DNA from: Patescibacteria group bacterium
Lineage (GTDB): Bacteria > Patescibacteriota > Patescibacteriia > 2-01-FULL-39-33
Reading direction: 5' to 3'
Assembly (NCBI GenBank): GCA_041650895.1
Contig: JBAZKF010000001.1
Span: 509,006 to 573,005, forward strand
DNA length: 64,000 bases
Part shown: piece after piece, positions 7,175-23,288 of the stretch
Layout of the letters: each line of letters opens with the position of its first letter
Position numbering within the stretch: position 1 is the first letter of the stretch
The notes under the pieces: generated by a model
Told to the model about the DNA's origin: nothing
Seen by the model: only the letters and a program-made list of their open reading frames with translations
Database searches by the model: none
Position numbers and translations under genes: made by a program

Positions 7175-8050
7175 ATGGAAAACATCAGGGTGATTTTGGG
7201 ATTTTCGGCAGGAATGCTGTTTATCATCGGACTTATTCCTTATGGCATCGCCATTATCGGCTACAACACCGTAACAAATTTCCTAACCTCAGCCAAAAAG
7301 AAAATTCAACCGTTTAAGCTATTATGGCTGATAGAACGATTTATCAATCTTCTTATTTGGATTTTAAATTTCAAAAAAAACAAGAAGCGGATTAAACCGT
7401 CAAAGGTTTCCTGGGTCATCTGGTTTTCCATCGATCTGCTGACTTTTAGCGGCATGGTAGCTGCCGGCACCCTTAACGGACAGATGACCGGGGTTATTTT
7501 CGGTGCTGGGATTATCTTACTGTTGGCCCTGATTTACGGTGAGAGTACTTGGACTAAACTGGATAAGTTGTGCCTATTGGGCGCGGCTGCGGGGCTGTCT
7601 CTATGGCTGTTATTTGACAACCCGCTTATGGCGATTATCGCCAGCGCCAGTGTTGGTTTTATCGGTTCCATCCCCACCCTCATTTCCGCCTGGCGCGATC
7701 CAGACAGAGAAGACAAATTGGCTTGGACAATCTTCTGGTTATCCTGCGCTTGCGCCGTACTGGCCATACCGCGTTTAACCGCCGCCGATGCCATTCAACC
7801 ACTTGATTTTTTCTTGATTGAGTCAATAATGATGCTTATCTTGTACTTCAACCCCACCGCTACAGGAGAATTAACTGCCATGAAATTATTCAACATCATA
7901 ACGATTCTAGCCATTGCCGTTTTAAGCAGTGCCTTATTCCTTGCTTTTGGGTTGTCATATATTCCGTCGTTGGGGATTGCTATCTTGATAATGATAGCTG
8001 GATTTGGTATGCTTCACTACCTGAACCGAAAATCTCCAAGGCGGAGATAG
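7175..8050 (+). CDS. polytopic integral membrane protein, hypothetical
   Basis: 291 aa with about 8 predicted hydrophobic helices. A good SD (AAGGAAGGG) precedes the ATG. Confidence 0.55.
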   Translation: MENIRVILGFSAGMLFIIGLIPYGIAIIGYNTVTNFLTSAKKKIQPFKLLWLIERFINLLIWILNFKKNKKRIKPSKVSWVIWFSIDLLTFSGMVAAGTLNGQMTGVIFGAGIILLLALIYGESTWTKLDKLCLLGAAAGLSLWLLFDNPLMAIIASASVGFIGSIPTLISAWRDPDREDKLAWTIFWLSCACAVLAIPRLTAADAIQPLDFFLIESIMMLILYFNPTATGELTAMKLFNIITILAIAVLSSALFLAFGLSYIPSLGIAILIMIAGFGMLHYLNRKSPRRR

Positions 8051-10900: not shown

Positions 10901-13900
10901 TCATTCTTCGTTTCCTAGGTCAATCTGAGGAGCGGCGGCAACCGTTACTGTTGTTGATCCATTGCCTATTTGACCCGATCCCGTAGCAGTCAATTCACCG
11001 ATCACCGACATTATCTCCGGATTAGACGGTTCTCCGGCCATGGGATTTGCTGGTTGGATTGTTCCCATACCTTTAGAACCAGCCGTTCCATTTGCTCCCA
11101 AAACGACCGGTGGACCGATAACCCCAGTAACCGACAACGGGGTAGAACTAACAAAAAACGGATCGCTACCGGAAGAGTCAGCTGTTGTTGAGGAGTTATT
11201 TTGTAAAAAAATCGGCGAACTACTGCTTAAAACAATATTCATTTCATCATTAACAACTATATCACCCAAGTCGTCGGTATTATTATCTGAAGTCTCATCA
11301 TCGCTTTTAACCGCCAGAGCATGCCAATTAAATCTCATCTCCTCTGTAAACGGCAGATCGACTGCAACAATAAAGCCGGTGGAGCTTTGCGCTTCTATCC
11401 AATAATCATGCCCGGAAACATTAAGTAAGGGGGTCAGCGTGATTATCGGATCAACATCATAGGGCTTAGCAAAATGAACAGCGGTAGAGGTTGCACCGGC
11501 AGACAACTTAACTGTGCCAGCCGCATCCTTATCCAAATAAATATGATCCTTAAACACCACCTTTGATTCAAATCCTGCTTCGCCGATAACTGTGATGGTA
11601 CCGTAAAAAGTGGCTGAAGAATTTACCGCTAATGAATCCAATACTTCTAAATCATCAAGCGGAGAGTCGTCAACAACTAAGGCCGACTCAGTGCTGGAAG
11701 CGATAATTCCGGATAATTGAGCGGACAGAACCCCAAGTTCTTGCTCCTGACGCTGAGCAACCTGCAATAAATAAAATGGCAGATGGTCGGCGCGATAGCC
11801 CTTGGTTCGGCCGTCATCAAGATATAATTCCGGCAAAGCATCTCTGATTTCTTCGGCGATCAAACCAAAGTCAGTCTGCCCGGTCTGTTTCCAGATAAAC
11901 GATTTGACTTGCAATCCCAATAAAGCGTCGATATTCAAGCTAGTATCAATGATATCATCTTTATACTCTCGAGATGACGGATTAACATTAGTCAAAGTTC
12001 CGTTATTGGAATAAACAGCGCCATTGGTATCTAAGGTGGAAATATTTACGGTTTTAGCTTCAGCATCAAAGGTAACAAAAGGCAGACCGTCATTATAATC
12101 AAGCCATTGATAACTTTTAGCGCTATCAAAAGACAATAACTCAGTTGAGGTAGTAAAATAAATATCCGCAGCCGACGAAAAATCTGAGGCAAAAAAGCTA
12201 ACATGAGCATCACGATTAGTTGAGAAAACTGCGAGATGATCTTTTATACCCACTAAATCCATATCGGATCCAAAAACAGCAGAAGTAGAAGCATGACCGG
12301 AAATCATTGGAACATCCATGAGGCCTTTATTTATATAGAACTTGAGCCCATAATTGCCATCATTTGTGAGTTGGAGCCAATCATTAGGCGATGTAACGGT
12401 TAATTTATGAGTTGGGGTAGTGGTGACAACACCAATGGTCGTAGTAGAATTTAGATTCGTCTCACCGGCAACCTTAAGCCCGCCACTGCCGATTATCACT
12501 CCGAAAAACTTGCCCAAACCGACGGTTATCAAATCCCTTAACACCTGTAAACCGCCAGACACTAACGAGCCAACCCTGGCGGTCGGCGTATCCAATCCCG
12601 GAAGCTTTATAATCACTAACCTATTGGGGCTTACAGACAATGGCAAATAAGCCCTGTTCCCGGAGACTTCCACTCCCCAAGGATTGCCCAAGGTGCTGAT
12701 TGAATCAACAAAATACGGATTATACGGGTCAGAAATGTTAATAATTTTCAAAGCTGCACCCTTATTATCAACAACATAAGCATAATCACCTTGAACCGAT
12801 AAGCCGGTAGATCCTGAAAAATCATTTATATCCTTGTAAAATTCCAACTGAGACCCTCCAACAATTACCGGATTAGTGGAAGAAGAAATGTCAATAATCC
12901 TAAATACCTCGGTAGAAGTGACCCCAATGTCTATAGGCGGTCCAAAGCAGTCATGAGTGGTATAAGCATAACTACCCTTAACAACCACATCCCGGCCTAA
13001 CGGCGGCATATCCAATAAATCACCGCCAACAACAATCGGATTAACCGGATCAGAAATATCAACGATCCTGAATACATTAGTTGAAGTAGCAACATAACTG
13101 ACGGTGTAGGCGTATTTTCCCTGAACATCAATGCCCCGAGTCTCACCGGGGAAATTAGTAACGGGATTACTGATTCTCCTTGGCTTGGAAGGATTAGACA
13201 CATTGATGATTTGCAAACCATCTTCACCGGTTAAGAGACTGGAGTAATAAGCGGTATAAAGCAAACCGTCTATGACTTTTAATTTTCTTAAAGCATAATT
13301 AGCGATATAATCTTCTCCAACCTTTTCCACTGGATTAGTCGGATCGGAAATATCCAAAATAGATAAAGTATTAGTGCTTTGATAAGAGTACTCCTCAAAT
13401 CCGATATAAGCGTATTTCCCATCAATATCAATGCATCTGGCTCCCAAACCGGCACCCGGCCTCAAAGCAAAACTATCATTTACTATAATCGGATTATCAG
13501 GATTGGAAATATCAAAAATTCTTAACTTGTTAGTAGAGGTCGGAGATTGTAATACTACATAGAGATAATCGCCATAAACCATGGAGTTAGATGCCCCGCC
13601 ATGAACTTCTGGCAAAGAAGTAGTAACATAACTTGGAGCTGAATAAAGCAAAGTGGAAGTAGCAATTTTTAGGTTAGAAAGATAAGGCGAAGAAGTCACA
13701 CCGACCAAGCCATTAGTTGCCTGTAAAACTCCGTTTAAACTGCCAATGGTAAGGTCGCCAGAAAGATAAGGCGAAGAAGTCACACCGACCAAGCCATTAG
13801 TAGCTTGCAGGATGCCGTTTAGACTGCCAACGACTAAATTAGTAGTAGTAGTGATTCCCGCTACCTGCAAATCTCCACCAAAGTAATTCTTGCCATTTGT

Positions 13901-16900
13901 AGAGTAAATGGCATAGTTATTGGTTGCTCCCATTGAATCAACGTCGTCAATTCTTAAAGCTGAGTAATCACCTGTAATTGTTCCGCCGTCATTAGTGCTG
14001 ATAATATGCACATTGTCTAATATGCCAGTGAATATTCCGTCATTCTCCAATTCAAAGTTGGCGTTATCAACATAGCCGTTAGTGGATATATTTGAATCAA
14101 CATCAAAAACAGTTCTAAATCTATTAGAATCAGCTACAAGAAACCCAGAATTATTGGCGTAAGTCGTTTCCCAGTTATTACCGTAATAAACTGAAGCATC
14201 ATTAGTTGAAGAAGAGTTAACAGTAACCGAGGAATAAATACTTCCAAGACCAAGACTTAATCCACCGCCAATATCAGCCCAATTATTTTCTTCTACTGTT
14301 CTTACAAAAGCATTTAGACCTCCAAAGATAGAAGCTAATACATTATAAAAAGGAAAGGCACTAATGACTGAACCTGCTCCGACTAACGTCTGGTCGCCTA
14401 CTAATAACTGATTGATAGTGGTAGTGGCCAGAGTGGAAGTTTCCGAAGCTCGGAAACTCTTGGCATAGATACTGGCTGAACTGCTGGCATTGCCATTAAT
14501 TGTTAAGAGAGTGGTGGAAACCGTGCCATAAACATCCAAAGCCGTTTCGGGCAATGATTTACCGATACCCACCTTGCCAGCAAAATAATTTTGAGTGTTG
14601 GAACCTCCCGACCAGATATTGTAATTAAGATTTGATGCTGAAGTGATGCCTTCGGTATAAAAACCATACGCATTCTCTGCTCCATCATTTCCAACATTCC
14701 TTATATTAATACCCTTATAATTTATAGGATGAAAATTTACATCGCTAATAATATCCAAATCAAGTCCGATGGCGTCGGTTACGGTTATTGTCGTATTTGA
14801 GGCATTAATAACATCAAAAAAGTTATTTCTGCCATGAAAGGCAGAAAATTCACTAATCGTCAAAGTCTGGCCACCGTTTGATACCCCCGCCTCTCCATAA
14901 CTGCCCCAGATTTGGTCGACAATTCCAGCTCCGTTGTCATAAACATAATTTCTACTACCAATCAGGCGATTATCGGTTGTTGTTCCGTCATTAATTACTC
15001 CAATTTCAGCTCCGTGAACTCGGTATAAATCACCGTTGAAATCACTGGGTATTCTTGTTGTCATACCCATGGTAGCGACAATTATTGAATCAGTCGGTGT
15101 ATTAAGGTAAGATTCAAATTCAATTTGATGAGAACCGTACTGGTAATAATCCTGGTTGGTAACAACTCTTAAAACCTGATTGCTCCCTTTAAGGGTAGTG
15201 GTTCCATTGACATTCAACCCCCGATCAAAGTTATAATTGGTTGCTCCGGTGATACCAAGTGCCCCAGCATTCGAATTTCCCCAGGGGTCGGTTGAAGTTT
15301 CTTGTATAGTCGCTATGTCATCTAAAATTGAAATCCTATCAGCATACAAATCAGATGTCGTAACTACCCCCACCACCCGTAAATCTCCGCCAAAATAGTT
15401 CTTGCCATTTGTAGAGTAAATGGCATAGTTATTGGTGGCACCCATTAACAGAACATCGTCAATTCTTAATGCCGAGTAATCACCTGTAATTGTTCCGCCG
15501 TCATTAGTATTAATAATATGCACATTGTCTAATCTGCCAGTGAATATTCCGTCATTCTCTAACTCAAAATTGACGTTATCAATATAACCGTTAGTAGATA
15601 TATTGGAGCCTGCATCAAAGAGTGTTTTGAATCTGTTAGAGTCGGCAACCGTAAACCCAGAATTATTGGCGTAAGTCGTTTCCCAGTTATTACCGTAATA
15701 AATTGAACTATCGTTAGTTGAAGAAGAATTGACATTGACTGAAGAGTAAACACTGCCAAGACCGATGCTAGTACCACCCCCATAATCAAGCCAGCTGCTT
15801 TCTTCTATGTTGTTTAATAAACCGGTTATACCGCCAAAAAGCGAAGAAAATAAATTATATAATGCTGAAACACTAAATGCCGAACCTGCTCCGACTAACG
15901 TCTGGTCGCCTGATAACAATCGATTGATGGTAGTAGTAGCCAGAGTAGAAGTGCCGGAAACGGATAATTCCCCGGTCAAGTCCAAACCGGCAAAAGTCGG
16001 GGTATTGGTTGTATCCAGCCATTGGTCAAAAGGGTTCTTGGCTGTAGCCACTAAATAAGAAGCGTCAAAATTGCTTTGGAACCCCGCCCACGTCGTCGTA
16101 GTGTTCCAAAAATACTGTTCGGAAGTGGTAGACCATCTAATTTGCTGAGTCTCCCAATAATCAGCAGATGTAGTGGAAAAAAAGTTGGTTATTGACTTCC
16201 AATAGTCACTGGAACTGGTAGACCAATTGCCGGCTAAAGTGGAAATATCCGACCAATCATTGATATAAACTCCATTCAAACCGGCGACGGTCCCCAAGTA
16301 AGAAGAGTTAGTGGTCGTGGCTGATCCGGTCACCGAAAGATTGCCATTAATGGTAGTAGCGGCTAATTGGGTATTGCCCAAAACACCTAGATTACCGGTA
16401 GTAGTAACGTGATTATCAAAGTAATAGCCGCCGGAGGCGTTTTCAAAAATCAATCTATCAGTGGAAGAATTCAAGTAAATATCAGAAGTAGTGACACTAT
16501 TGGCACTAAAAGTCAGTTTAGGATTCTGGGATATAGAAACATTAATTAGGTTACCACTAGCTAAAGAAATTTTTTCAAAGTCCTTGGCCGCGCCGACACT
16601 GTTATTAGAAACAAAAATCAAATGTTGAGTGGTGGTCTGGTAGCCTATTGTGGCTATACTATCATTATCATAAGAGCCAAATAATATCATGGGACTTTGA
16701 TCGGGCTGAGTATTCCAAATATAGGACGAGTCTTTAAAGCCAAAAACGTCAGTCAGAATAACGTTGGTGCCACTAGCAAAAGCCCCTGACGGGATGGTAT
16801 AACCGTAGATTTTGCCTTGAACAGTATCATTAAAAAAGGAAAAGGTGGTTGTTGCCAGGGTAGTAATACCCTGAGAAGCAAAACTTTCAGTAGAAGTTGC

Positions 16901-17806
16901 CCGAGTTGCGGTCAAATCTGTGATACTGGCAATGGTGGCGACCAAATTAGTGAATAAACCGGAGATAGCATTAAAGACGGAAGTGTAAAAATCAGTCGTG
17001 GTGGCTTGAGTTATAGAAGCGTAAGTAGAAAACAAATTAGTGGAAGTAGCATTTATCGCCAAGGTGGAGGAGGCGCTTAAATTCTTGATATTGGCAGTTG
17101 AAGTAACCGATAAATCGGTAACAGCCAAAGTACCGCCTGTCGCATCACCAAAAACCAAAGTAGAAATATTGGCTATAGTAGCCGTTAAACTACTGATAAT
17201 GGAAGATATGGCGCTAAGAGCCGCGGCGAAAAAATTAGTGCTGGTGGCATTAGTAATTGAGGCGTTGCTGGCAAAAAAATTGGTGGAAGTCAAATTAGTT
17301 ATGGTGGCGCGATCATTAGCCATGTCCGCCCTTAAAAAAGAGGTGGTAGCCAAGCCGTCAAATTCCAAGGTGTTAAGGGCGTTCGGCACAGCGCCCAGAC
17401 GTTTTCTGGGGGTAAGGGTTTCCCCGTCAACGGCTACTTCTAAATATATGTCTTGATTAAAATCCACCGAAGACAAAGAAGTAACCGACCCTAACATAAC
17501 TGAAAACAAACCATTGGCAACCGCCACTTGATCAGCGCCGGTTCGCGTTTCCGTCCAAAGCACCGAAGAACAAGATGAATCGGCACATAATCTAAACACC
17601 ATATCGTAATCACCATCAGCCACTGGACTATCGCTATGGTCAGTTAGCTTGCCTTGATAATTTATTTGCTGATTAAATGAAGCATTGGCTTGGGAGACAA
17701 CAAAAAACAGGGAAAACACAGCAAAACAAGCCATGATAACCCTAATCATCAGGTACTTAAAAGAATTTTGGTGTGTTTTTGTCACCATGCCAAAATGTTT
17801 ACGCAT
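10901..17806 (-). CDS. giant secreted/surface protein (2301 aa) with LVIVD-type beta-propeller repeats and a tail-fibre-like intramolecular chaperone (Peptidase_S74-like) motif
   Basis: N-terminal signal/TM segment (MACFAVFSLFFVVSQANA). Thr/Ser/Asn-rich beta-type sequence with internal duplications. Repeated G[KD]YAY...ID(I)SxPxNP units, and an SSREYKDDI...GLIAEEIRDALPELY motif. Confidence 0.75.
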   Translation of the reverse strand: MRKHFGMVTKTHQNSFKYLMIRVIMACFAVFSLFFVVSQANASFNQQINYQGKLTDHSDSPVADGDYDMVFRLCADSSCSSVLWTETRTGADQVAVANGLFSVMLGSVTSLSSVDFNQDIYLEVAVDGETLTPRKRLGAVPNALNTLEFDGLATTSFLRADMANDRATITNLTSTNFFASNASITNATSTNFFAAALSAISSIISSLTATIANISTLVFGDATGGTLAVTDLSVTSTANIKNLSASSTLAINATSTNLFSTYASITQATTTDFYTSVFNAISGLFTNLVATIASITDLTATRATSTESFASQGITTLATTTFSFFNDTVQGKIYGYTIPSGAFASGTNVILTDVFGFKDSSYIWNTQPDQSPMILFGSYDNDSIATIGYQTTTQHLIFVSNNSVGAAKDFEKISLASGNLINVSISQNPKLTFSANSVTTSDIYLNSSTDRLIFENASGGYYFDNHVTTTGNLGVLGNTQLAATTINGNLSVTGSATTTNSSYLGTVAGLNGVYINDWSDISTLAGNWSTSSSDYWKSITNFFSTTSADYWETQQIRWSTTSEQYFWNTTTTWAGFQSNFDASYLVATAKNPFDQWLDTTNTPTFAGLDLTGELSVSGTSTLATTTINRLLSGDQTLVGAGSAFSVSALYNLFSSLFGGITGLLNNIEESSWLDYGGGTSIGLGSVYSSVNVNSSSTNDSSIYYGNNWETTYANNSGFTVADSNRFKTLFDAGSNISTNGYIDNVNFELENDGIFTGRLDNVHIINTNDGGTITGDYSALRIDDVLLMGATNNYAIYSTNGKNYFGGDLRVVGVVTTSDLYADRISILDDIATIQETSTDPWGNSNAGALGITGATNYNFDRGLNVNGTTTLKGSNQVLRVVTNQDYYQYGSHQIEFESYLNTPTDSIIVATMGMTTRIPSDFNGDLYRVHGAEIGVINDGTTTDNRLIGSRNYVYDNGAGIVDQIWGSYGEAGVSNGGQTLTISEFSAFHGRNNFFDVINASNTTITVTDAIGLDLDIISDVNFHPINYKGINIRNVGNDGAENAYGFYTEGITSASNLNYNIWSGGSNTQNYFAGKVGIGKSLPETALDVYGTVSTTLLTINGNASSSASIYAKSFRASETSTLATTTINQLLVGDQTLVGAGSVISAFPFYNVLASIFGGLNAFVRTVEENNWADIGGGLSLGLGSIYSSVTVNSSSTNDASVYYGNNWETTYANNSGFLVADSNRFRTVFDVDSNISTNGYVDNANFELENDGIFTGILDNVHIISTNDGGTITGDYSALRIDDVDSMGATNNYAIYSTNGKNYFGGDLQVAGITTTTNLVVGSLNGILQATNGLVGVTSSPYLSGDLTIGSLNGVLQATNGLVGVTSSPYLSNLKIATSTLLYSAPSYVTTSLPEVHGGASNSMVYGDYLYVVLQSPTSTNKLRIFDISNPDNPIIVNDSFALRPGAGLGARCIDIDGKYAYIGFEEYSYQSTNTLSILDISDPTNPVEKVGEDYIANYALRKLKVIDGLLYTAYYSSLLTGEDGLQIINVSNPSKPRRISNPVTNFPGETRGIDVQGKYAYTVSYVATSTNVFRIVDISDPVNPIVVGGDLLDMPPLGRDVVVKGSYAYTTHDCFGPPIDIGVTSTEVFRIIDISSSTNPVIVGGSQLEFYKDINDFSGSTGLSVQGDYAYVVDNKGAALKIINISDPYNPYFVDSISTLGNPWGVEVSGNRAYLPLSVSPNRLVIIKLPGLDTPTARVGSLVSGGLQVLRDLITVGLGKFFGVIIGSGGLKVAGETNLNSTTTIGVVTTTPTHKLTVTSPNDWLQLTNDGNYGLKFYINKGLMDVPMISGHASTSAVFGSDMDLVGIKDHLAVFSTNRDAHVSFFASDFSSAADIYFTTSTELLSFDSAKSYQWLDYNDGLPFVTFDAEAKTVNISTLDTNGAVYSNNGTLTNVNPSSREYKDDIIDTSLNIDALLGLQVKSFIWKQTGQTDFGLIAEEIRDALPELYLDDGRTKGYRADHLPFYLLQVAQRQEQELGVLSAQLSGIIASSTESALVVDDSPLDDLEVLDSLAVNSSATFYGTITVIGEAGFESKVVFKDHIYLDKDAAGTVKLSAGATSTAVHFAKPYDVDPIITLTPLLNVSGHDYWIEAQSSTGFIVAVDLPFTEEMRFNWHALAVKSDDETSDNNTDDLGDIVVNDEMNIVLSSSSPIFLQNNSSTTADSSGSDPFFVSSTPLSVTGVIGPPVVLGANGTAGSKGMGTIQPANPMAGEPSNPEIMSVIGELTATGSGQIGNGSTTVTVAAAPQIDLGNEE
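11800..11980 (-). other. Peptidase_S74 / intramolecular chaperone auto-processing-like motif inside the giant protein
   Basis: SSREYKDDIIDT...FGLIAEEIRDALPELY matches the SD(R/K)xLKxNI ... GxIAQEV..xxPExV signature of endosialidase/tail-spike C-terminal chaperone domains. Confidence 0.5.
12560..13650 (-). repeat. LVIVD-like beta-propeller repeat region (protein level)
   Basis: At least six blades: GKYAYIG/ILDISDPTNP, GKYAYTVS/IVDISDPVNP, GSYAYTTHD/IIDISSSTNP, GDYAYVVDN/INISDPYNP, GNRAYLPL. Confidence 0.5.
13676..13838 (-). repeat. in-frame tandem duplication, 2 x ~84 bp (28 aa: IGSLNGvLQATNGLVGVTSSPYLS..)
   Basis: agaaagataaggcgaagaagtcacaccgaccaagccattagt... occurs twice back to back with a few substitutions. 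Confidence 0.7.
13861..14470 (-). repeat. intragenic ~610-bp direct repeat, copy 2
   Basis: About 85-90% nt identity to 15364-15990 by eye. Encodes TSTLATTTINQLLVGDQTLVGAGS...YAIYSTNGKNYFGGDL. Confidence 0.65.
15364..15990 (-). repeat. intragenic ~610-bp direct repeat, copy 1
   Basis: Encodes SVSGTSTLATTTINRLLSGDQTLVGAGS...YAIYSTNGKNYFGGDL. Paralogous to 13861-14470, about 0.9 kb away in the same ORF. Confidence 0.65.
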
Positions 17807-17968
17807 TAAACCTAATAGAAAAAGTAATAAAATTACTCTTACTTTTGGTAATGCCTTTATAAATTATAACACAAAACGAGTCAGAAAACGAAATTGTTAT
17901 CCACAGATTTATAAAAAAATGCTCCGTAAACTGCGGAACATCTTTTTAGTTAATATTTTAGTTGGGTT

Positions 17969-20701
17969 TTAGCCGAATAATCCTTCTTTATCTTCTGGTT
18001 CTTTTGACTGCGTCGGCTGATTATCAGCGATCGGCGGAACATTGGTAAATTGACTCTCATTAACCGGCCTTGTTTCTTCTGAGACTTCTTTAATAAGCGT
18101 ATTTTCTGAGGGCACGGCCGATTGATCGGTTTCTTGAGTCTCAACTGCTTCCATTATTTGTTCCTTTCCCTGTTTTAAACCGATATTCTGTTTAACCACG
18201 GCTTCGGCCGCGGTCTGGCCGGTTAAATCGATTATTGGGGTCTTAGCTTGGGCATAGCCGTCCTTGCTGGCAGTCAAATAATACTTATTATTTTCCGCCA
18301 AAAACCCATATTCACCGCGATTATTAGTCACATAGAACTCCAACATACGGCCGTATTCGGGAGAGAAAATCCTAATCACCGCTTTGGCCAAAGATTTCTT
18401 ATTGGTCAAGTCATAAACCCTGCCCCAACTGCGTTTTCCTTTGGGTTTATCGGCTAGACGCTTAAAAATCAAAAGTAGCGATAGATGTAAAGCTAAAATC
18501 AAAGCGGAAAAAATAGAAGGATAAATAAAAGCATAGATAAAGGCCAAAATGGGACCGATTAAACTAAGACTGGCCGCCCAATACCCCTTGCGAAACTTCG
18601 CTATAGCCTGTTTATCTGTTATCGCCAAATTCTTATCCGAATCCAACGGAATATTCGGAGCTATCGTACCCATTGAACCGGCGGGAATATTGATGGTTTC
18701 ACCAAAATACAAGTCCAGATACTGGCCATCTGACTTTTTGCCGGCTAAAATCTCCGAGGGATAAATAAAACCAGACTTTTCAACCCTAATGACGTACTGG
18801 CCTTCCGGAGCAAAGAAAATAAATCTTCCGAATTTATCAGTTACCCGAGAAGTCACTAAGCGGTCAGTCGCCTTGTTGTATAAGCGGACCAGCGCCAAAT
18901 CAACTGGTTTCTTGGTGATAGAATTGAACACTACACCCCAATCCTTACGACGTCGCCGAAACAAGAAAAGCCAAGGTTGGGTAAATAAGAATTGCAAAAT
19001 AGAGAAACTCCAAAAAGGCACAACTAAACTGACATTAATCAAGGCTAAGCCCACGGTTACCTGAGCGATTATTTTGCCCATCGGCGACTGGGCGATATCT
19101 CTGATCGGCGTTAAAAATTCCGCCATTGCCCTTAGTAAAGCGACGCCTGGCAGTTGTTCTATGATTTCTAACGGCCTAACCAAAGCGACTGACACTAACC
19201 AACCAGATACTTCCGCCAACTGAGCTCCAATGGAATCTTGCGCGGAAAATCTTAAATCATAACGGCCGGCCGGTATGGGAGAAAATTGAGCGGCATAAGT
19301 ATTACTGACGGCATCATAGGTTAAAAAATAAACATAATTATTGACGGCCGAGGATAAATCCATCTTGATCCTATCCGTACCCCCGGGAACTTTATCGGCG
19401 GCGATATAAACAGTGATCATCCCACCGTCAGCAGAAACAGTGACCGTACCATCGGCGGAAAAAACACTAATTGACTCATCTTGGCTAAAAATAAAATCGC
19501 CTAAATTGATCTGTGGCGGAATGATTGGCGGAGTCGTCGTCGGTGTGGTGGTCGGAATAATCGGCGGAGTAGTGGTCACAGTGAAGGGCACGCCATTGAT
19601 GCCGACACCACTGGAATAAAAACCAAAAGAATTAAAAGAAAAAATCGAATAGTAATATCTGGTACCGTTAACCAAGCCGGGATTAGCCAGACTGACTCGC
19701 CCGTCCGGAACTGACTCGCCCAAACCGCTGTATATGGCTATACCGGAAGTTAACGAGGGGTAACCCAAGGTAGAGCGACGGATGTACGCGCCGGTAAAAT
19801 CCGGCTCCGCTGGGTTGCGCCAAAATAAAGTCAAGATACTGTCACCCTCAACTATGCTCAAATCAGTCACATTGGATGGTGTGGTTGTCGGAGTGGTAGT
19901 AGGAGAGCTTATGGGCACACCGCTAATACTGGCGCCGGAAGCAAAATTACCGATAGAATCATAAGCAAAAGCAGTATAATAGTATCTCGTGCCATTAATC
20001 AAGCCGGTGTTTAAAAAGCTGATTTCCGGACTGACGGCCGGCTCGCCCCAGCCGTCATAAACCAATACGCCCGAAGCTAAAGCGGGATAATCAACGGTGG
20101 AACGCCTAATAGTGACGCCGGCAAAGTCAGTACTGGTGGGGTTCTGCCAGAATAGGGTTAATCGGCTATCCCCGGCTACCAAACGCAAGCCGTCAACGTT
20201 GGCAATCAAAGCCGGCGTCGAAGCGCTCTTAGTGGTAAAATCATAATCACCCGTCTGAGCCGATCCGCCGGTTGTATTCTGGCAAGCAAGATAGAAATGA
20301 TATAGGGTTGCTTGACTAAGAGAGGTTATGGATGATGAATGGGCTGTTACGGGTGATACCTCAGCGGCTTGACCAGTCAAATAATCGGTGGTGGTACCCC
20401 AATGCAACTGACAATAAGCGGAACTATTAGTCTGCCAAGTAATCGTGGCTCCGCTAATCGTAGTCGTGGCCACTCTAACATCAGAAATTACAAAACCACC
20501 GCCGCAATCAGTGCAGGGAGGCGGGCAATCACTGGGACAATTATCATTAGTTTCTCCGGTTTCGCAAACGCCGTTATTATTACAGACGGAGGCAACGACC
20601 GACACGTCAACGCTAAAACTGTCACTGGAGGTTACAGCCGAAACCGTCAGCGGTAAAAGAGCAAGAAAAAGGATAAAAGCTATTTTTTTAACCGCTGGCA
20701 T
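17969..20701 (-). CDS. large surface/membrane protein (910 aa): FN3-like domains, T/P-rich linker, TM segments interleaved with CarboxypepD_reg-like domains, acidic C-terminal tail
   Basis: Signal peptide MPAVKKIAFILFLALLPLTVSA. Three FN3-like modules (TLFW(Q/R)NP...GTRYYY). TTTPPIIPTTTPTTTPPIIPP linker. Hydrophobic helices, and KFGRFIFFAPEGQYVIRVEKSGF / NNRGEYGFL...YYLTASKDGY beta-sandwich motifs. Confidence 0.7.
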   Translation of the reverse strand: MPAVKKIAFILFLALLPLTVSAVTSSDSFSVDVSVVASVCNNNGVCETGETNDNCPSDCPPPCTDCGGGFVISDVRVATTTISGATITWQTNSSAYCQLHWGTTTDYLTGQAAEVSPVTAHSSSITSLSQATLYHFYLACQNTTGGSAQTGDYDFTTKSASTPALIANVDGLRLVAGDSRLTLFWQNPTSTDFAGVTIRRSTVDYPALASGVLVYDGWGEPAVSPEISFLNTGLINGTRYYYTAFAYDSIGNFASGASISGVPISSPTTTPTTTPSNVTDLSIVEGDSILTLFWRNPAEPDFTGAYIRRSTLGYPSLTSGIAIYSGLGESVPDGRVSLANPGLVNGTRYYYSIFSFNSFGFYSSGVGINGVPFTVTTTPPIIPTTTPTTTPPIIPPQINLGDFIFSQDESISVFSADGTVTVSADGGMITVYIAADKVPGGTDRIKMDLSSAVNNYVYFLTYDAVSNTYAAQFSPIPAGRYDLRFSAQDSIGAQLAEVSGWLVSVALVRPLEIIEQLPGVALLRAMAEFLTPIRDIAQSPMGKIIAQVTVGLALINVSLVVPFWSFSILQFLFTQPWLFLFRRRRKDWGVVFNSITKKPVDLALVRLYNKATDRLVTSRVTDKFGRFIFFAPEGQYVIRVEKSGFIYPSEILAGKKSDGQYLDLYFGETINIPAGSMGTIAPNIPLDSDKNLAITDKQAIAKFRKGYWAASLSLIGPILAFIYAFIYPSIFSALILALHLSLLLIFKRLADKPKGKRSWGRVYDLTNKKSLAKAVIRIFSPEYGRMLEFYVTNNRGEYGFLAENNKYYLTASKDGYAQAKTPIIDLTGQTAAEAVVKQNIGLKQGKEQIMEAVETQETDQSAVPSENTLIKEVSEETRPVNESQFTNVPPIADNQPTQSKEPEDKEGLFG

Positions 20702-20703
20702 AA

Positions 20704-21459
20704 TTAATTGGTATAGGCGGTAAGAGTAACAGTGGCGCTGTAACTGCCTGCCGATTGATTGACGTCAGCGCCAGCCTCGGCACGCAATTTAATGGTTGTG
20801 GCAGTACCGACAACATCAGCCGCCGCTGATTGAGCAATGGTTTTATCGCTGGTTGTCAATTCATCCCAACAGGCATTGGGATTATCCGCTACTCCGCCGA
20901 TATTGCACGTCGCTCCGTCATCCCGATAGGTGGAAGTAATATCTGATCCTTCGGGAGTAAAACCAAAACCCGAAGCGGCAGATGTTACCGACCAGGTATA
21001 ATCAGGATCAGCGCCGGCCTTAACGTAGTCAGCAAAGCTGTTTATCCCAGAAACCAAGGCGGGGGCTGACCCGGCTTTAATCTGCAAAGTATAACCAAGC
21101 GCGCCGCTGGTCCTAACCGTCGCTATAGTGGAGCCATTGGCTATACCGCCTAAAGTTGAATTAATTGAAGGCGAAAGCGAAACGCTGGAATCAGCAACAG
21201 TTAAAGCGACATAAGTTGTTTCATCCAACTGCTGGAAGCCGGCGTTAGTTTGGTAAGTGGTGCTGGTGGAAAGACCGGTACCGATTTCACCGCCGGTTTG
21301 CTCTAAATCATAAGTGGTGGAGGTACTTAATCCGCCGATAAAATTAAGAGAATCACGTTGCAACTCATAATTGGTTGACGACATAACATAAGCCCAAACC
21401 GGCGAAGCGAAAGTAATTAAAAAAACAGCGATAATTAAAAAAAATATTTTATTTTTCAT
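20704..21459 (-). CDS. secreted Thr/Ser-rich protein, possible degenerate WxL-like surface domain
   Basis: Signal peptide MKNKIFFLIIAVFLITFASPVWA. YTWSV and SATVTLTAY segments sit where WxL motifs would be. Overlaps the downstream gene by 4 nt (ATGA). Confidence 0.45.
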   Translation of the reverse strand: MKNKIFFLIIAVFLITFASPVWAYVMSSTNYELQRDSLNFIGGLSTSTTYDLEQTGGEIGTGLSTSTTYQTNAGFQQLDETTYVALTVADSSVSLSPSINSTLGGIANGSTIATVRTSGALGYTLQIKAGSAPALVSGINSFADYVKAGADPDYTWSVTSAASGFGFTPEGSDITSTYRDDGATCNIGGVADNPNACWDELTTSDKTIAQSAAADVVGTATTIKLRAEAGADVNQSAGSYSATVTLTAYTN

Positions 21460-22397
21460 ATCGTTTTACTCTTACTCCGGCGTCGTTTCAGCCAAAAGAT
21501 AGCGCTGATTACCGCAATAACCGCGACAACAATTAGAATCGTAAAAATCCAAGACGGTAAAACCCAGAAACCAGCATAACTCTCGGTATAACTCTGGCCA
21601 TAACCGGGATTCAATAATAATTTGACGCGATACCAGCCGAATTTCGGCTGAGTGAACTCTAATGTCTGCGTTCGTGTCGTTTCCGGCATGACAAAGTAAG
21701 CGGGAATCTTTATTTTCTCTTTAGTCTGTCCTAAAAAATTCAATAAGGATATTTCTCCGGAGGGGTTTAAATAAATATTTCCGGTATTCTTAAAAGAAAA
21801 ACCGACTTTAACCGGGGCGGAGCTATTAAGGTTTTTCTCTGCTTTAAGGCCGGTTAATTCTCCTGATTCCTCAACCGCACCGCTGACTCGGACAAAATAG
21901 AGCGAGGCTAAGCGCGAAACCGGCTTGACCCGTCCGGCGCTATCTTCCGAATCCGCCACAGTAGGGGCGACTACACTGATTAGGACTGCGCCATAAAGCC
22001 CGCCAGGCGGGGCATCAATAGGCACCTTCACTTCTACTGGCAGTTCCATTCGTTCGCCATGCAGCAAGGAAAAGCTCATTACCTCTGGGTGTAAAAAATC
22101 CTTTAGGGAATATTGCCCTTTCTGCGCGCCCAGGAATTCCAAATCAACACCACTTTGAGCGGTAAAATCCTCCACAGCCACAGAAAAATTCAAGGGTTGG
22201 CCAGAACGATTGATGACCGCCACTAAGGTTTTCTCGTTTTGTCCCGGGTTCAGACGTAATTCTTTTTTTCCACCTTCCAGAACAAAATCATTAAAATTTC
22301 CTACGTTGGTTAGCGGAGTGACTGTATAAGCGGTAGAGCAAAGCGGAGCCAAAACCAGCAAACAAAAAGTTGCCAGCCAAATTGTTCGTTTAGGCAT
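21456..22397 (-). CDS. cell-surface protein with C-terminal TM anchor and basic tail (CscA / DUF916-DUF3324-like)
   Basis: Signal peptide, beta-rich ectodomain, then C-terminal LPSWIFTILIVVAVIAVISAIFWLKRRRSKSKTI (a TM helix plus a cationic tail). Confidence 0.5.
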   Translation of the reverse strand: MPKRTIWLATFCLLVLAPLCSTAYTVTPLTNVGNFNDFVLEGGKKELRLNPGQNEKTLVAVINRSGQPLNFSVAVEDFTAQSGVDLEFLGAQKGQYSLKDFLHPEVMSFSLLHGERMELPVEVKVPIDAPPGGLYGAVLISVVAPTVADSEDSAGRVKPVSRLASLYFVRVSGAVEESGELTGLKAEKNLNSSAPVKVGFSFKNTGNIYLNPSGEISLLNFLGQTKEKIKIPAYFVMPETTRTQTLEFTQPKFGWYRVKLLLNPGYGQSYTESYAGFWVLPSWIFTILIVVAVIAVISAIFWLKRRRSKSKTI

Positions 22398-22452
22398 AGA
22401 TATTATTTAACTTTCAATTATATTATAACACAGAAGCCGTGAGATGAGAAAA

Positions 22453-22905
22453 TTATTCAGCTTCTTGTCGATATGCTGACCAAACCAAGAAAATCAAACC
22501 GCCGACAATAGCGCAGTCAGCTAAATTGAAAATAGAAAAATATCGCACATCGATATAATCAATCACGCGGGCGTAATACAAACGATCAAGAAAATTAGAC
22601 CAAGCGCCGACCCAAACCAAAAGCAAAGACAACAATTGCCCACTGTTTTTACGACAAAAAAGTATTAGTCCGTAATAAGACAGTGCCCCAAAAGCCAACA
22701 GATATAAAATGATTATCAGCCAATAGTTAACCGGTAAGCCGAAAGCTACGCCAGAGTTAAAGGCCAAACGTAAACTTAACCATTGGCCAAGAGGAAAAAT
22801 GACCTCGGACCAAGAGTGAATAAACAGCCATTTAAGGCCGCGATCAAATATAAAAACCGCAATCGGCGCCAAAAGGGTAATTGCGGTTTTGAGATCTTTC
22901 ATCAT
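22453..22905 (-). CDS. lspA: lipoprotein signal peptidase II
   Basis: Conserved AFNSGVAFGL and FNLADCAIVGG motifs in four TM helices. The start is trimmed to the internal Met (M16 of the longest ORF, 22903-22905) so it does not overlap the DksA-like gene. Confidence 0.8.
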   Translation of the reverse strand: MMKDLKTAITLLAPIAVFIFDRGLKWLFIHSWSEVIFPLGQWLSLRLAFNSGVAFGLPVNYWLIIILYLLAFGALSYYGLILFCRKNSGQLLSLLLVWVGAWSNFLDRLYYARVIDYIDVRYFSIFNLADCAIVGGLIFLVWSAYRQEAE

Positions 22906-22910
22906 AAATC

Positions 22911-23288
22911 TTAACTTTGGCCTTTGAGCGATTTCTTGCAGGAAACGCAAGAAGTGGATTCGGGACGGATGGCTAGACGCCCGGCCTCAATTTCTTTGCC
23001 GCAATGCTTGCACTTGCCGTAAGTGCCTTCGACAATCTTCTTTAAGGCCTTCTCTACATCATGAAGATTATCCTCCAATTCATGTTCCAATGAAAGATTA
23101 GTGGCGTAATCAGAAACCTCAGAAGCGTTATCTTCAATTGACTGGCTATTGCCATAATCAGGAAAATCAGCGTTAAAATTGACTTCATCGCCTTCAGCGC
23201 GAGTGCCAATAGCATCCAAATGCTTGATGATCTCCGCTTTTTTGGCCTCGAGTTGTAATTTGAATTGTTGCAGTTGCTGATCATTCAT
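22911..23288 (-). CDS. DksA/TraR-family C4 zinc-finger protein
   Basis: Coiled-coil N-terminus and a C-terminal CKHCGKEIEAGRLAIRPESTSCVSC (CxxC-x17-CxxC) motif. Confidence 0.7.
   Translation of the reverse strand: MNDQQLQQFKLQLEAKKAEIIKHLDAIGTRAEGDEVNFNADFPDYGNSQSIEDNASEVSDYATNLSLEHELEDNLHDVEKALKKIVEGTYGKCKHCGKEIEAGRLAIRPESTSCVSCKKSLKGQS

Follow-up and report, generated by a model that had tools for sequence, protein, structure and literature searches.

A chaperone-pilin-anchor cassette of Patescibacteria related to Pam pili and Firmicutes WxL clusters: a candidate usher-less donor-strand system

Introduction

Bacteria of the candidate phyla radiation (CPR) live attached to host cells, and the manner of their attachment is largely unknown. 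Besides type IV pili, the only CPR fibre system that we know to have been described is Pam, in one cultured Saccharimonadia species. The WxL/Csc clusters of Firmicutes encode WxLIP, which is the same as CscA and combines DUF916, DUF3324 and a transmembrane (TM) helix, together with the WxL proteins CscB and CscC and the LPXTG protein CscD. The locus analysed here resembles both systems. It lies in a 64,000-nucleotide stretch of a Patescibacteria group bacterium (GCA_041650895.1, contig JBAZKF010000001.1, positions 509,006 to 573,005), referred to below as the window, and encodes a membrane-anchored chaperone-like protein of 313 amino acids (aa), a 251-aa pilin-like protein, a 910-aa FN3 membrane protein and a secreted giant of 2301 aa. 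With moderate confidence, the cassette formed by these genes is interpreted as an usher-less donor-strand pilus or surface complex, a variant of Pam lacking PamA and PamB.

The Pam pilus has been described in CPR bacteria including Ca. Mycosynbacter amalyticus (Troman et al., bioRxiv 10.64898/2026.03.03.709456, version June 2026). PamA and PamB each consist of a nine-strand N-terminal domain, a linker donor strand and a truncated Ig C-terminal domain. In the proposal of the same authors, PamC and PamD are chaperones with a TM helix and PamR carries an extra beta-strand at its N-terminus, FN3 domains and a TM helix; a ‘tail fibre-like protein’ is central in Pam neighbourhoods (bioRxiv 10.64898/2026.03.03.709456).

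WxL clusters have been defined by the presence of at least two WxL-domain proteins, each with the dual Trp-x-Leu motif, within four genes of a WxLIP (PMC10599100). In AlphaFold2 (AF2) models from the same study, a strand of a WxLIP hairpin was predicted to fill a gap in the WxL beta-sandwich. Such an insertion, if the models are right, would in effect be donor-strand complementation.

Gene order and fusions of the cassette

The window contained the locus as five open reading frames (ORFs), all on the minus strand: the four structural genes and, upstream of them, lspA. The ORF listing agreed exactly with the coordinates given in a preliminary description of this DNA, which had been made by a model from the letters. 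The 4-nt ATGA overlap noted there is real and joins the 313-aa and 251-aa genes; 2 nt lie between the stop codon of the 251-aa gene and the start of the 910-aa gene, and a gap of 162 nt separates the latter from the giant. Pfam searches confirmed the LVIVD and Peptidase_S74 domains named for the giant, the two CarboxypepD_reg domains of the 910-aa protein and the identity of lspA. The Sec-type signal peptides on all four structural proteins (313, 251, 910 and 2301 aa) and the C-terminal TM helix and KRRRSKSK tail of the 313-aa protein were also borne out. A lipobox was not found in any of the four by motif search.

To place the locus among related genomes, GTDB species representatives were scanned. 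A relative was present in 166 genomes, from which 80 loci (80 species) were kept and searched with profiles of the chaperone and pilin families and with the window proteins. Of 77 species loci with enough sequence, 76 had the chaperone gene directly upstream of the pilin gene; the gene directly downstream of the latter encoded a homologue of the 910-aa protein in 56/67. The co-localisation of five genes predicted by the preliminary description stood for these three; it stood in part for the giant, whose type of N-terminal domain (N-domain) was encoded within 4 kb downstream of the cassette in 27 of 48 loci, and failed for lspA, which was found upstream in no more than 4 of 71 loci, each of them from the window's own clade. 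The flanks of the cassette varied between lineages; the 166 genomes belong to Buchanan-, Magasanik-, Lloyd-, Zambryski-, Vogel-, Kaiser- and Nomurabacteria. The clustering of chaperone and pilin is far beyond chance. The core is thus a three-gene operon, chaperone-pilin-anchor, to which a giant fibre gene is often linked. The nearest named relatives of the window are Ca. Buchananbacteria, in which the 313-aa protein is 78% identical and the gene order is the same, flanks included; the NCBI lineage places the source in the Parcubacteria group within the Patescibacteria group.

In four species genomes, the chaperone and the pilin were fused as one ORF of 528-556 aa (L018:9005-10675, L026:9173-10762, L050:3871-5526 and L058:9131-10717). 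These proteins begin with a signal peptide, the chaperone and its TM helix; a short basic loop then leads to the signal peptide of the pilin, which serves as a second TM segment, and an A-x-A site precedes the pilin itself. This topology would bring the exported pilin beside the chaperone and provides a Rosetta-stone argument for physical partnership. Further fusion candidates of 463-577 aa were seen among the representatives (P0337, P0376, P0459 and P0460).

A shorter second pilin paralogue (190-240 aa) was encoded upstream of the chaperone gene in 36/71 loci (for example L003:9298-9981, L029:8283-8933 and L042:8264-8953). It is not present in the window, where the 251-aa gene is the only pilin-type gene and encodes a single domain.

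The 313-aa chaperone-like protein

In the AF2 model of the 313-aa protein, built from 54 homologues, a C-terminal helix comes after two beta-sandwich domains; the predicted local distance difference test score (pLDDT) is 91.8 and the predicted template modelling score 0.80. In structure comparison the model aligned across both domains with CfaA, FimC, SafB, CsuC, PapD and EfmWxLIP1. The Pfam model DUF916 (WxLIP_PGBD) matched the protein itself below threshold (24.1 bits against a gathering score of 27.3), and matched 50 of the 54 members of its family. EfmWxLIP1 was also found by the family profile among PDB sequences (E=3.7e-5). When the family was aligned by hhalign with seven Firmicutes WxLIPs, drawn from plasmid-borne WxL clusters, a probability of 98% was obtained (E=2.9e-13, 211 columns); the alignment covers residues 46-266, hence both domains. 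Judged by sequence, the protein is a WxLIP/CscA homologue over both domains, and the earlier label of ‘CscA-like anchor’ was correct because hhalign, the profile search and DUF916 all show homology to WxLIP.

A candidate donor strand, comparable to the G1 strand of chaperones, was assigned to SRLASLYFVRV by its likeness to PapD G1 and to the WxLIP hairpin. The AF2 model shows a low-confidence loop (aa 144-161) leading into it, and in the family alignment L166 is invariant and R162, F168 and R170 are nearly so.

The chaperone profile retrieved 1,420 clusters at 50% identity with E<=1e-30, 6,017 at 1e-10 and 10,783 at 1e-3. No Pam chaperone model was matched by the family in the NCBIfam scan, where the existence of such a model has not been established.

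The 251-aa pilin-like subunit

For the 251-aa protein no Pfam match was obtained, and its family, which is large, was found only in Patescibacteria. The AF2 model revealed a C-terminal beta-sandwich (aa 81-251) with pLDDT >95, preceded by a region (aa 24-80) with pLDDT <50 in the monomer. In the fold search, the sandwich matched chaperone-usher pilins, i.e. polymerising pilins. It contains a conserved Cys185-Cys197 pair and a terminal C-strand, and C185 and Y240 are invariant in the alignment. The N-terminal extension of approximately 55 residues is among the most conserved regions of the family, yet is without structure in the monomer model. It comprises three conserved repeats (SSTNYELQRDSLNFIGG, STSTTYDLEQTGGEIGTG and STSTTYQTNAGFQQL) with a motif of the type S-S-x-N-Y-x-I. 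The upstream paralogues lack this triple repeat and have a single donor-like N-terminal strand (TDQFTISQTVT, TDNVIVTLDVT) before the pilin domain.

The match of the NCBIfam model NF058579 (CPR-type pilus protein PamT) to the 251-aa protein scored 42.1 bits with E=6.5e-11 and was limited to aa 6-134, which takes in the N-terminal extension; the model matched 54 of the 59 family members through their N-terminal half. The equivalog cut-off of this model is 240 bits. Since all scores were below it, the family is considered PamT-related rather than a PamT equivalog. NF058581 (CPR_Pam_pilin_C) matched only two of the 59 members, at E values of at least 0.025. Searches of PDB sequences with the pilin family profile gave nothing significant, and the Pam structures 25PZ and 25QA were absent from the results of the PDB searches.

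The preliminary description had taken the 251-aa protein for WxL-like, which its sequence does not support. Pfam WxL matched 0/59 family members, none of which has a dual W-x-L motif, hhalign of 12 WxL sequences against the family gave a probability of 1%, and the motif search found no W-x-L in the 251-aa, 910-aa or giant proteins; the fold is that of a chaperone-usher-type pilin.

The 910-aa FN3 protein

The N-terminal part of the 910-aa protein consists, in order, of a signal peptide, a short strand, a Cys-rich knot, three FN3-like domains with Pro/Thr linkers and an Ig-like domain. Two TM blocks come next, each with a CarboxypepD_reg domain behind it (the sequence RRRRK stands between the first block and its domain), and the protein ends in an acidic tail. 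Of the domains claimed earlier, FN3 stood in part: the protein itself gave only a sub-threshold match to Pur_ac_phosph_N, and the assignment is backed at family level by the homologues; the N-terminal FN3 part alone is conserved in nearly all of them.

An alternating strand sits right after the signal-peptide cleavage site in every homologue. Hydrophobic residues occupy the positions aligned to F29, V31, V33 and V36 in 55, 58, 37 and 58 of 59 homologues, respectively, with polar residues between them, as in SDSFSVDVSVV of the window and GNQFTIGVTV, EDQFNITATV and TDSFKVFLTV of homologues. A mature N-terminus that alternates in this way is the signature of an N-terminal donor strand, for which this segment is a candidate on sequence grounds.

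The two CarboxypepD_reg domains (18464-19072, aa 544-746) are transthyretin-like and lie behind TM blocks and basic clusters. They are possibly cytoplasmic because the basic clusters follow the TM blocks, a location that would be unusual for this domain.

The giant protein

The 2301-aa protein matched LVIVD (1.7e-27) and Peptidase_S74 (1e-5, 26.1 bits against a gathering score of 22). Its layout is a signal peptide with a conserved A-x-A, the N-domain, variable repeat modules, the LVIVD propeller and S74, which is not at the extreme C-terminus since approximately 300 residues follow it. Across loci, conservation was limited to the first ~250 residues. In the Buchananbacteria orthologue (L001, 1,564-1,588 aa) approximately 680 residues are missing. 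At the DNA level, the gene contains an internal duplication: two stretches (13836-14135 and 15348-15647), spaced 1,512 nt apart, are 83% identical across 300 nt or more. A tandem repeat of 84 nt is found at 13676-13830. Based on these internal repeats and on the residues missing from the orthologue, the modules of the giant turn over fast.

The gene has its own extended -10 promoter-like site. N-domains, in shorter proteins, were also found at four loci without a homologue of the chaperone family, and for this reason the giant was demoted from a core part to a frequent companion. It is regarded as a possibly co-regulated companion adhesin and not as a proven structural part. The idea of a pilin-like acceptor domain at its N-terminus was dropped, as hhalign of the N-domain against the pilin family showed no relation.

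At one of the chaperone-less loci a 101-aa ORF (L090:9196-9501) is right downstream of the N-domain protein and matches the pilin profile weakly (E=2.8e-9), with no chaperone nearby. At two others (L087:6289-9101 and L089:6329-9368) the shorter N-domain proteins stand behind small uncharacterised genes (304/245 aa and 289/63/197 aa, respectively), which have no homology to either the chaperone or the pilin family and may be a different partner set.

Comparison with described systems

The likeness to Pam extends to most parts of the cassette. Both belong to monoderm CPR bacteria with Sec export, the single-membrane status of the present host being taken from the literature. Like PamC and PamD as described, the 313-aa protein has a PapD/FimC-like chaperone fold and a helix at its C-terminus that keeps it in the membrane; Ig-like pilins and a tail-fibre-like neighbour are common to both, an FN3 protein bearing a TM anchor and a strand at its N-terminus is an apparent further parallel, and the 251-aa family matches the PamT hidden Markov model. 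The cassette differs in having, instead of the two-domain PamA/PamB/PamE, one single-domain pilin with a triple-repeat extension, whose match to PamT is far under the equivalog cut-off. The 910-aa anchor has a much larger architecture than PamR: its three FN3 domains, several TM segments, Ig-like domain and two CarboxypepD_reg domains compare with two FN3 domains and one TM helix. It is likened to PamR, as described, through its conserved N-terminal strand, FN3-like domains and TM segments. Unlike Pam, the cassette has no ATP synthase neighbours, and it occurs in Buchananbacteria and related bacteria of the Parcubacteria group, whereas Pam occurs in Saccharimonadia or Microgenomatia. The combination had been thought undescribed; with the related Pam system in a 2026 preprint and a PamT model in NCBIfam, that view was not supported.

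With the WxL/Csc clusters the cassette shares the anchor: the homology of the 313-aa protein to WxLIP extends across its two domains, and the protein has the corresponding architecture of DUF916, DUF3324 and C-terminal TM helix and ends in the same basic tail. A plasmid cluster of Lactococcus SK11 is similar in gene order and sizes (WxLIP, small partner, large partner), and a strand of the anchor, as predicted for WxLIP and proposed here, would complete the sandwich of its partner. The partners differ, as those of the cassette are without WxL domain or W-x-L motifs and have instead a pilin fold and N-terminal extensions. No LPXTG motif was found in the cassette proteins and no sortase among the neighbours scanned.

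The small WxL proteins of Firmicutes plasmids (L091-L097, e.g. L094:3513-5789 and L092:7199-7915) were seen to have an amphipathic strand right after the signal peptide (SNGAITF, STGKIGF, STGDVAF, ATIKF), mostly with a Pro-rich linker next. These strands resemble the N-terminal extension of the pilin.

With the chaperone-usher systems (Pap, Fim, Csu and CFA/I) the cassette has in common a two-domain chaperone, a pilin with a putatively incomplete Ig-like fold ending in a C-strand, and amphipathic N-terminal strands. In contrast to them, its presumed monoderm host would have no outer membrane and the cassette has no usher; usher-like genes were absent from the Pfam-scanned genes of the window. 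Further differences are that the cassette chaperone is membrane-anchored where the classical one is soluble, that sequence similarity to Pap/Fim proteins is not detectable, and that the pilin domain is larger (~170 aa) and carries the 55-residue extension. With the S74-bearing tail fibres of phages and with endosialidases the giant has in common this domain and a plan in which an attachment module at the N-terminus is conserved and the distal modules vary. It differs in being chromosomal, in its Sec signal peptide, in the position of S74 ~300 residues before the C-terminus, in the lack of PHROG matches and in combining S74 with an LVIVD propeller.

Proposed mechanism

From the observed folds, homologies, tight coupling, gene order, fusions and N-terminal strand conservation, we infer strand complementation, polymerisation, anchoring and a role for the giant along the following lines. 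All cassette proteins would be exported by Sec and cleaved by signal peptidase I. The 313-aa protein would be tethered by its C-terminal helix, displaying the two-domain PapD/WxLIP-like chaperone outside the cell. There, a chaperone strand would cap the incomplete Ig-like fold of fresh 251-aa subunits (donor-strand complementation). Subunits would then be joined head to tail as the N-terminal extension of one displaces the chaperone strand in the next (donor-strand exchange). The product would most likely be a thin adhesive fibre, which the 910-aa protein would terminate and anchor: the strand at the mature N-terminus of this protein would enter the last subunit, with the FN3 domains and Pro/Thr stalk crossing the wall and the TM segments holding the membrane. 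The giant LVIVD/S74 protein, separately transcribed, would probably be a trimeric adhesin with an N-terminal docking module and variable distal host-binding modules.

Weighing of the alternatives

Several points count against a pilus of this kind. No filament is on record for the 251-aa family. The two-domain PamA and PamB, which are the constituents of the solved Pam filaments, are absent from the window, and the PamT match has 42 bits against a cut-off of 240 and is confined to the N-terminal half. The clearest sequence homologue, that of the anchor, comes from WxL clusters, which are described as surface complexes and not as pili. The topology of the 910-aa protein is uncertain, as its CarboxypepD_reg domains may be cytoplasmic. 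The link of the giant to the cassette looks looser, given its own promoter and the chaperone-less loci, only one of which has even a weak pilin-family match. Some of these points would suit a non-polymerising complex of the WxL/Csc type, in which the 313-aa protein permanently holds one 251-aa subunit by strand complementation, no fibre is formed, and the FN3 protein and the giant adhesin use the pair as their adaptor or platform at the membrane. Pilus formation is not on record for WxL clusters (PMC10599100), the window has a single pilin-type gene with no major pilin of the PamA/B type, and the chaperone-pilin fusions would fit a fixed 1:1 complex equally. Such a complex is nevertheless thought unlikely, if still to be taken seriously: it leaves the conserved 55-residue extension without a role, and the fold matches are to polymerising pilins, with sequence similarity to PamT from a filament-forming system. 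Donor-strand-like N-termini moreover occur in three protein classes, while the acceptor domain is found only in pilin-type proteins, one class in the window and two where the upstream paralogue is present.

The usher-less donor-strand reading was also set against two explanations in which the genes form no such system. A chance neighbourhood of unrelated envelope proteins, lspA included, with no common function would agree with the housekeeping flanks and with the separate promoters of lspA and the giant. The chaperone-pilin and FN3 gene orders are kept at 76/77 and 56/67 species loci despite different flanks, and the genes overlap or nearly abut and are in places fused; for the three core genes this explanation is contradicted by synteny and is very improbable as a whole, and for lspA it is still the best. 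A degraded prophage or tail-fibre module, with the giant as a phage tail fibre and its neighbours as phage structural or assembly proteins, was suggested by the Peptidase_S74 domain and by the tail-fibre logic of a conserved N-terminus with variable distal modules. It was rejected because searches of PHROGs gave no match (0/4 proteins with any family). Phage genes were absent from the scanned genes of the window, a close relative carries the locus at the corresponding place in its chromosome, many other Patescibacteria have it too, and its composition shows no marked shift, so that this origin is the least credible of those considered.

Implications

The cassette is an apparently simpler and much more widespread relative of Pam (166 representative genomes; >1,400 chaperone clusters at 50% identity). 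A CPR-like origin and a role at the surface in attachment, as put forward in the preliminary description, are plausible. For study the cassette offers defined parts, namely the chaperone, a subunit whose extension is conserved, an anchor that bears a donor-like strand and a giant adhesin that varies. Through the homology between chaperone and WxLIP, CPR pili are also connected to the WxL clusters for virulence and adhesion in enterococci, listeriae and lactobacilli, which are poorly understood and for which strand complementation is thereby suggested as a concrete mechanism.

As a link from CPR pili to the WxL/Csc clusters of Firmicutes, this homology seems not to have been reported before; the Pam preprint does not mention WxLIP or DUF916 homology of the chaperone (bioRxiv 10.64898/2026.03.03.709456). 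A search for ‘donor strand’ with a CPR term returned the Pam preprint alone, and one for ‘WxL’ with ‘donor strand’ returned, from the library searched, only one review, apparently a general one on surface-colonisation proteins. It is conceivable, though rather doubtful, that Pam, this cassette and the WxL/Csc clusters form one ancient usher-less donor-strand superfamily centred on a DUF916/DUF3324 chaperone anchored in the membrane. In that case strand complementation would be how WxL ‘surface complexes’ are put together as well, possibly as fibres, and the Gram-negative chaperone-usher pili would gain a monoderm counterpart of comparable breadth.

Locus map, lspA and flanking genes

The features of the locus are listed in Table 1.

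Table 1. Genes, protein segments and regulatory sites of the cassette locus, in window positions
Feature	Position	Strand	Basis or remark
lspA	22453-22950	-	Listed ORF, TTG start
Promoter-like site between lspA and chaperone gene	22422-22450	-	TTCTCA, 17 nt, extended -10 TGTGTTATAAT, 25 nt 5' of ATG
313-aa WxLIP/CscA-homologous chaperone-like gene	21456-22397	-	Signal peptide, two PapD-like beta-sandwich domains, C-terminal TM helix, basic tail
Candidate donor (G1-like) strand, aa 161-171	21885-21917	-	AF2 secondary structure and pLDDT profile
C-terminal TM helix, aa 283-301, then KRRRSKSK	21495-21551	-	Hydropathy 2.96; AF2 helix 282-310
251-aa pilin-like subunit gene, PamT-related family	20704-21459	-	Translational coupling to chaperone gene via ATGA
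N-terminal extension, aa 24-80, candidate donor-strand region	21220-21390	-	Alignment conservation, low pLDDT
Pilin beta-sandwich domain, aa 81-251	20707-21219	-	pLDDT >95, fold matches
910-aa FN3 membrane protein gene	17969-20701	-	Pfam, domain/TM map, synteny
Mature N-terminal amphipathic strand, aa 24-38, SDSFSVDVSVVASV	20588-20632	-	Candidate terminal donor strand, conservation in 59 homologues
Weak hairpin and T-run	17923-17937		Ahead of the TGTGTTATAAT copy of the giant
Second TGTGTTATAAT copy	17863-17873	-	57 nt 5' of ATG of the giant
2301-aa secreted tail-fibre-like giant gene	10901-17806	-	Pfam, N-domain synteny
Conserved N-terminal domain of the giant, aa ~43-155, FNxQINYQGKL...PRKxLGxVP	17342-17680	-	Conservation over 41 sequences
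Peptidase_S74 (endosialidase-type intramolecular chaperone), aa 1944-1994	11825-11977	-	Pfam

The lspA gene encodes a genuine signal peptidase II (Pfam Peptidase_A8, 2.2e-23; TIGR00077, 68.6, just under the cut-off of 73.95). Its listed TTG start (22950) overlaps a dksA-like gene; the ATG at 22905/22902 is the more probable start and yields a protein of approximately 150 aa like its homologues. A consensus promoter is common to lspA and the upstream dksA-like gene, and a separate promoter-like site precedes the chaperone gene. The claim that lspA belongs to the locus was not upheld: its own promoter, its clade-limited linkage and the empty lipobox search of the cassette proteins, because of which the functional link was rejected, rule it out as a part of the system.

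The scanned flanks and the other large ORFs of the window were housekeeping genes by Pfam: thioredoxin, TrxB, an aminoacyl-tRNA synthetase, RsmE, GlyA, NadE, Prs, PPDK, DnaK/J, pyruvate kinase, NusA, trigger factor, QueA and RuvB. The one exception among the flanking ORFs, encoding 291 aa on the plus strand (7175-8050), had no Pfam match.

The 11-mer TGTGTTATAAT is present in exactly two copies in the 64 kb (22422-22432 and 17863-17873, minus strand) against 0.09 expected, one 5' of the chaperone gene and one 5' of the giant gene. The more general TGnTATAAT was found in 11 copies in the window against 2.9 expected, and most of the copies checked were just 5' of a gene start.

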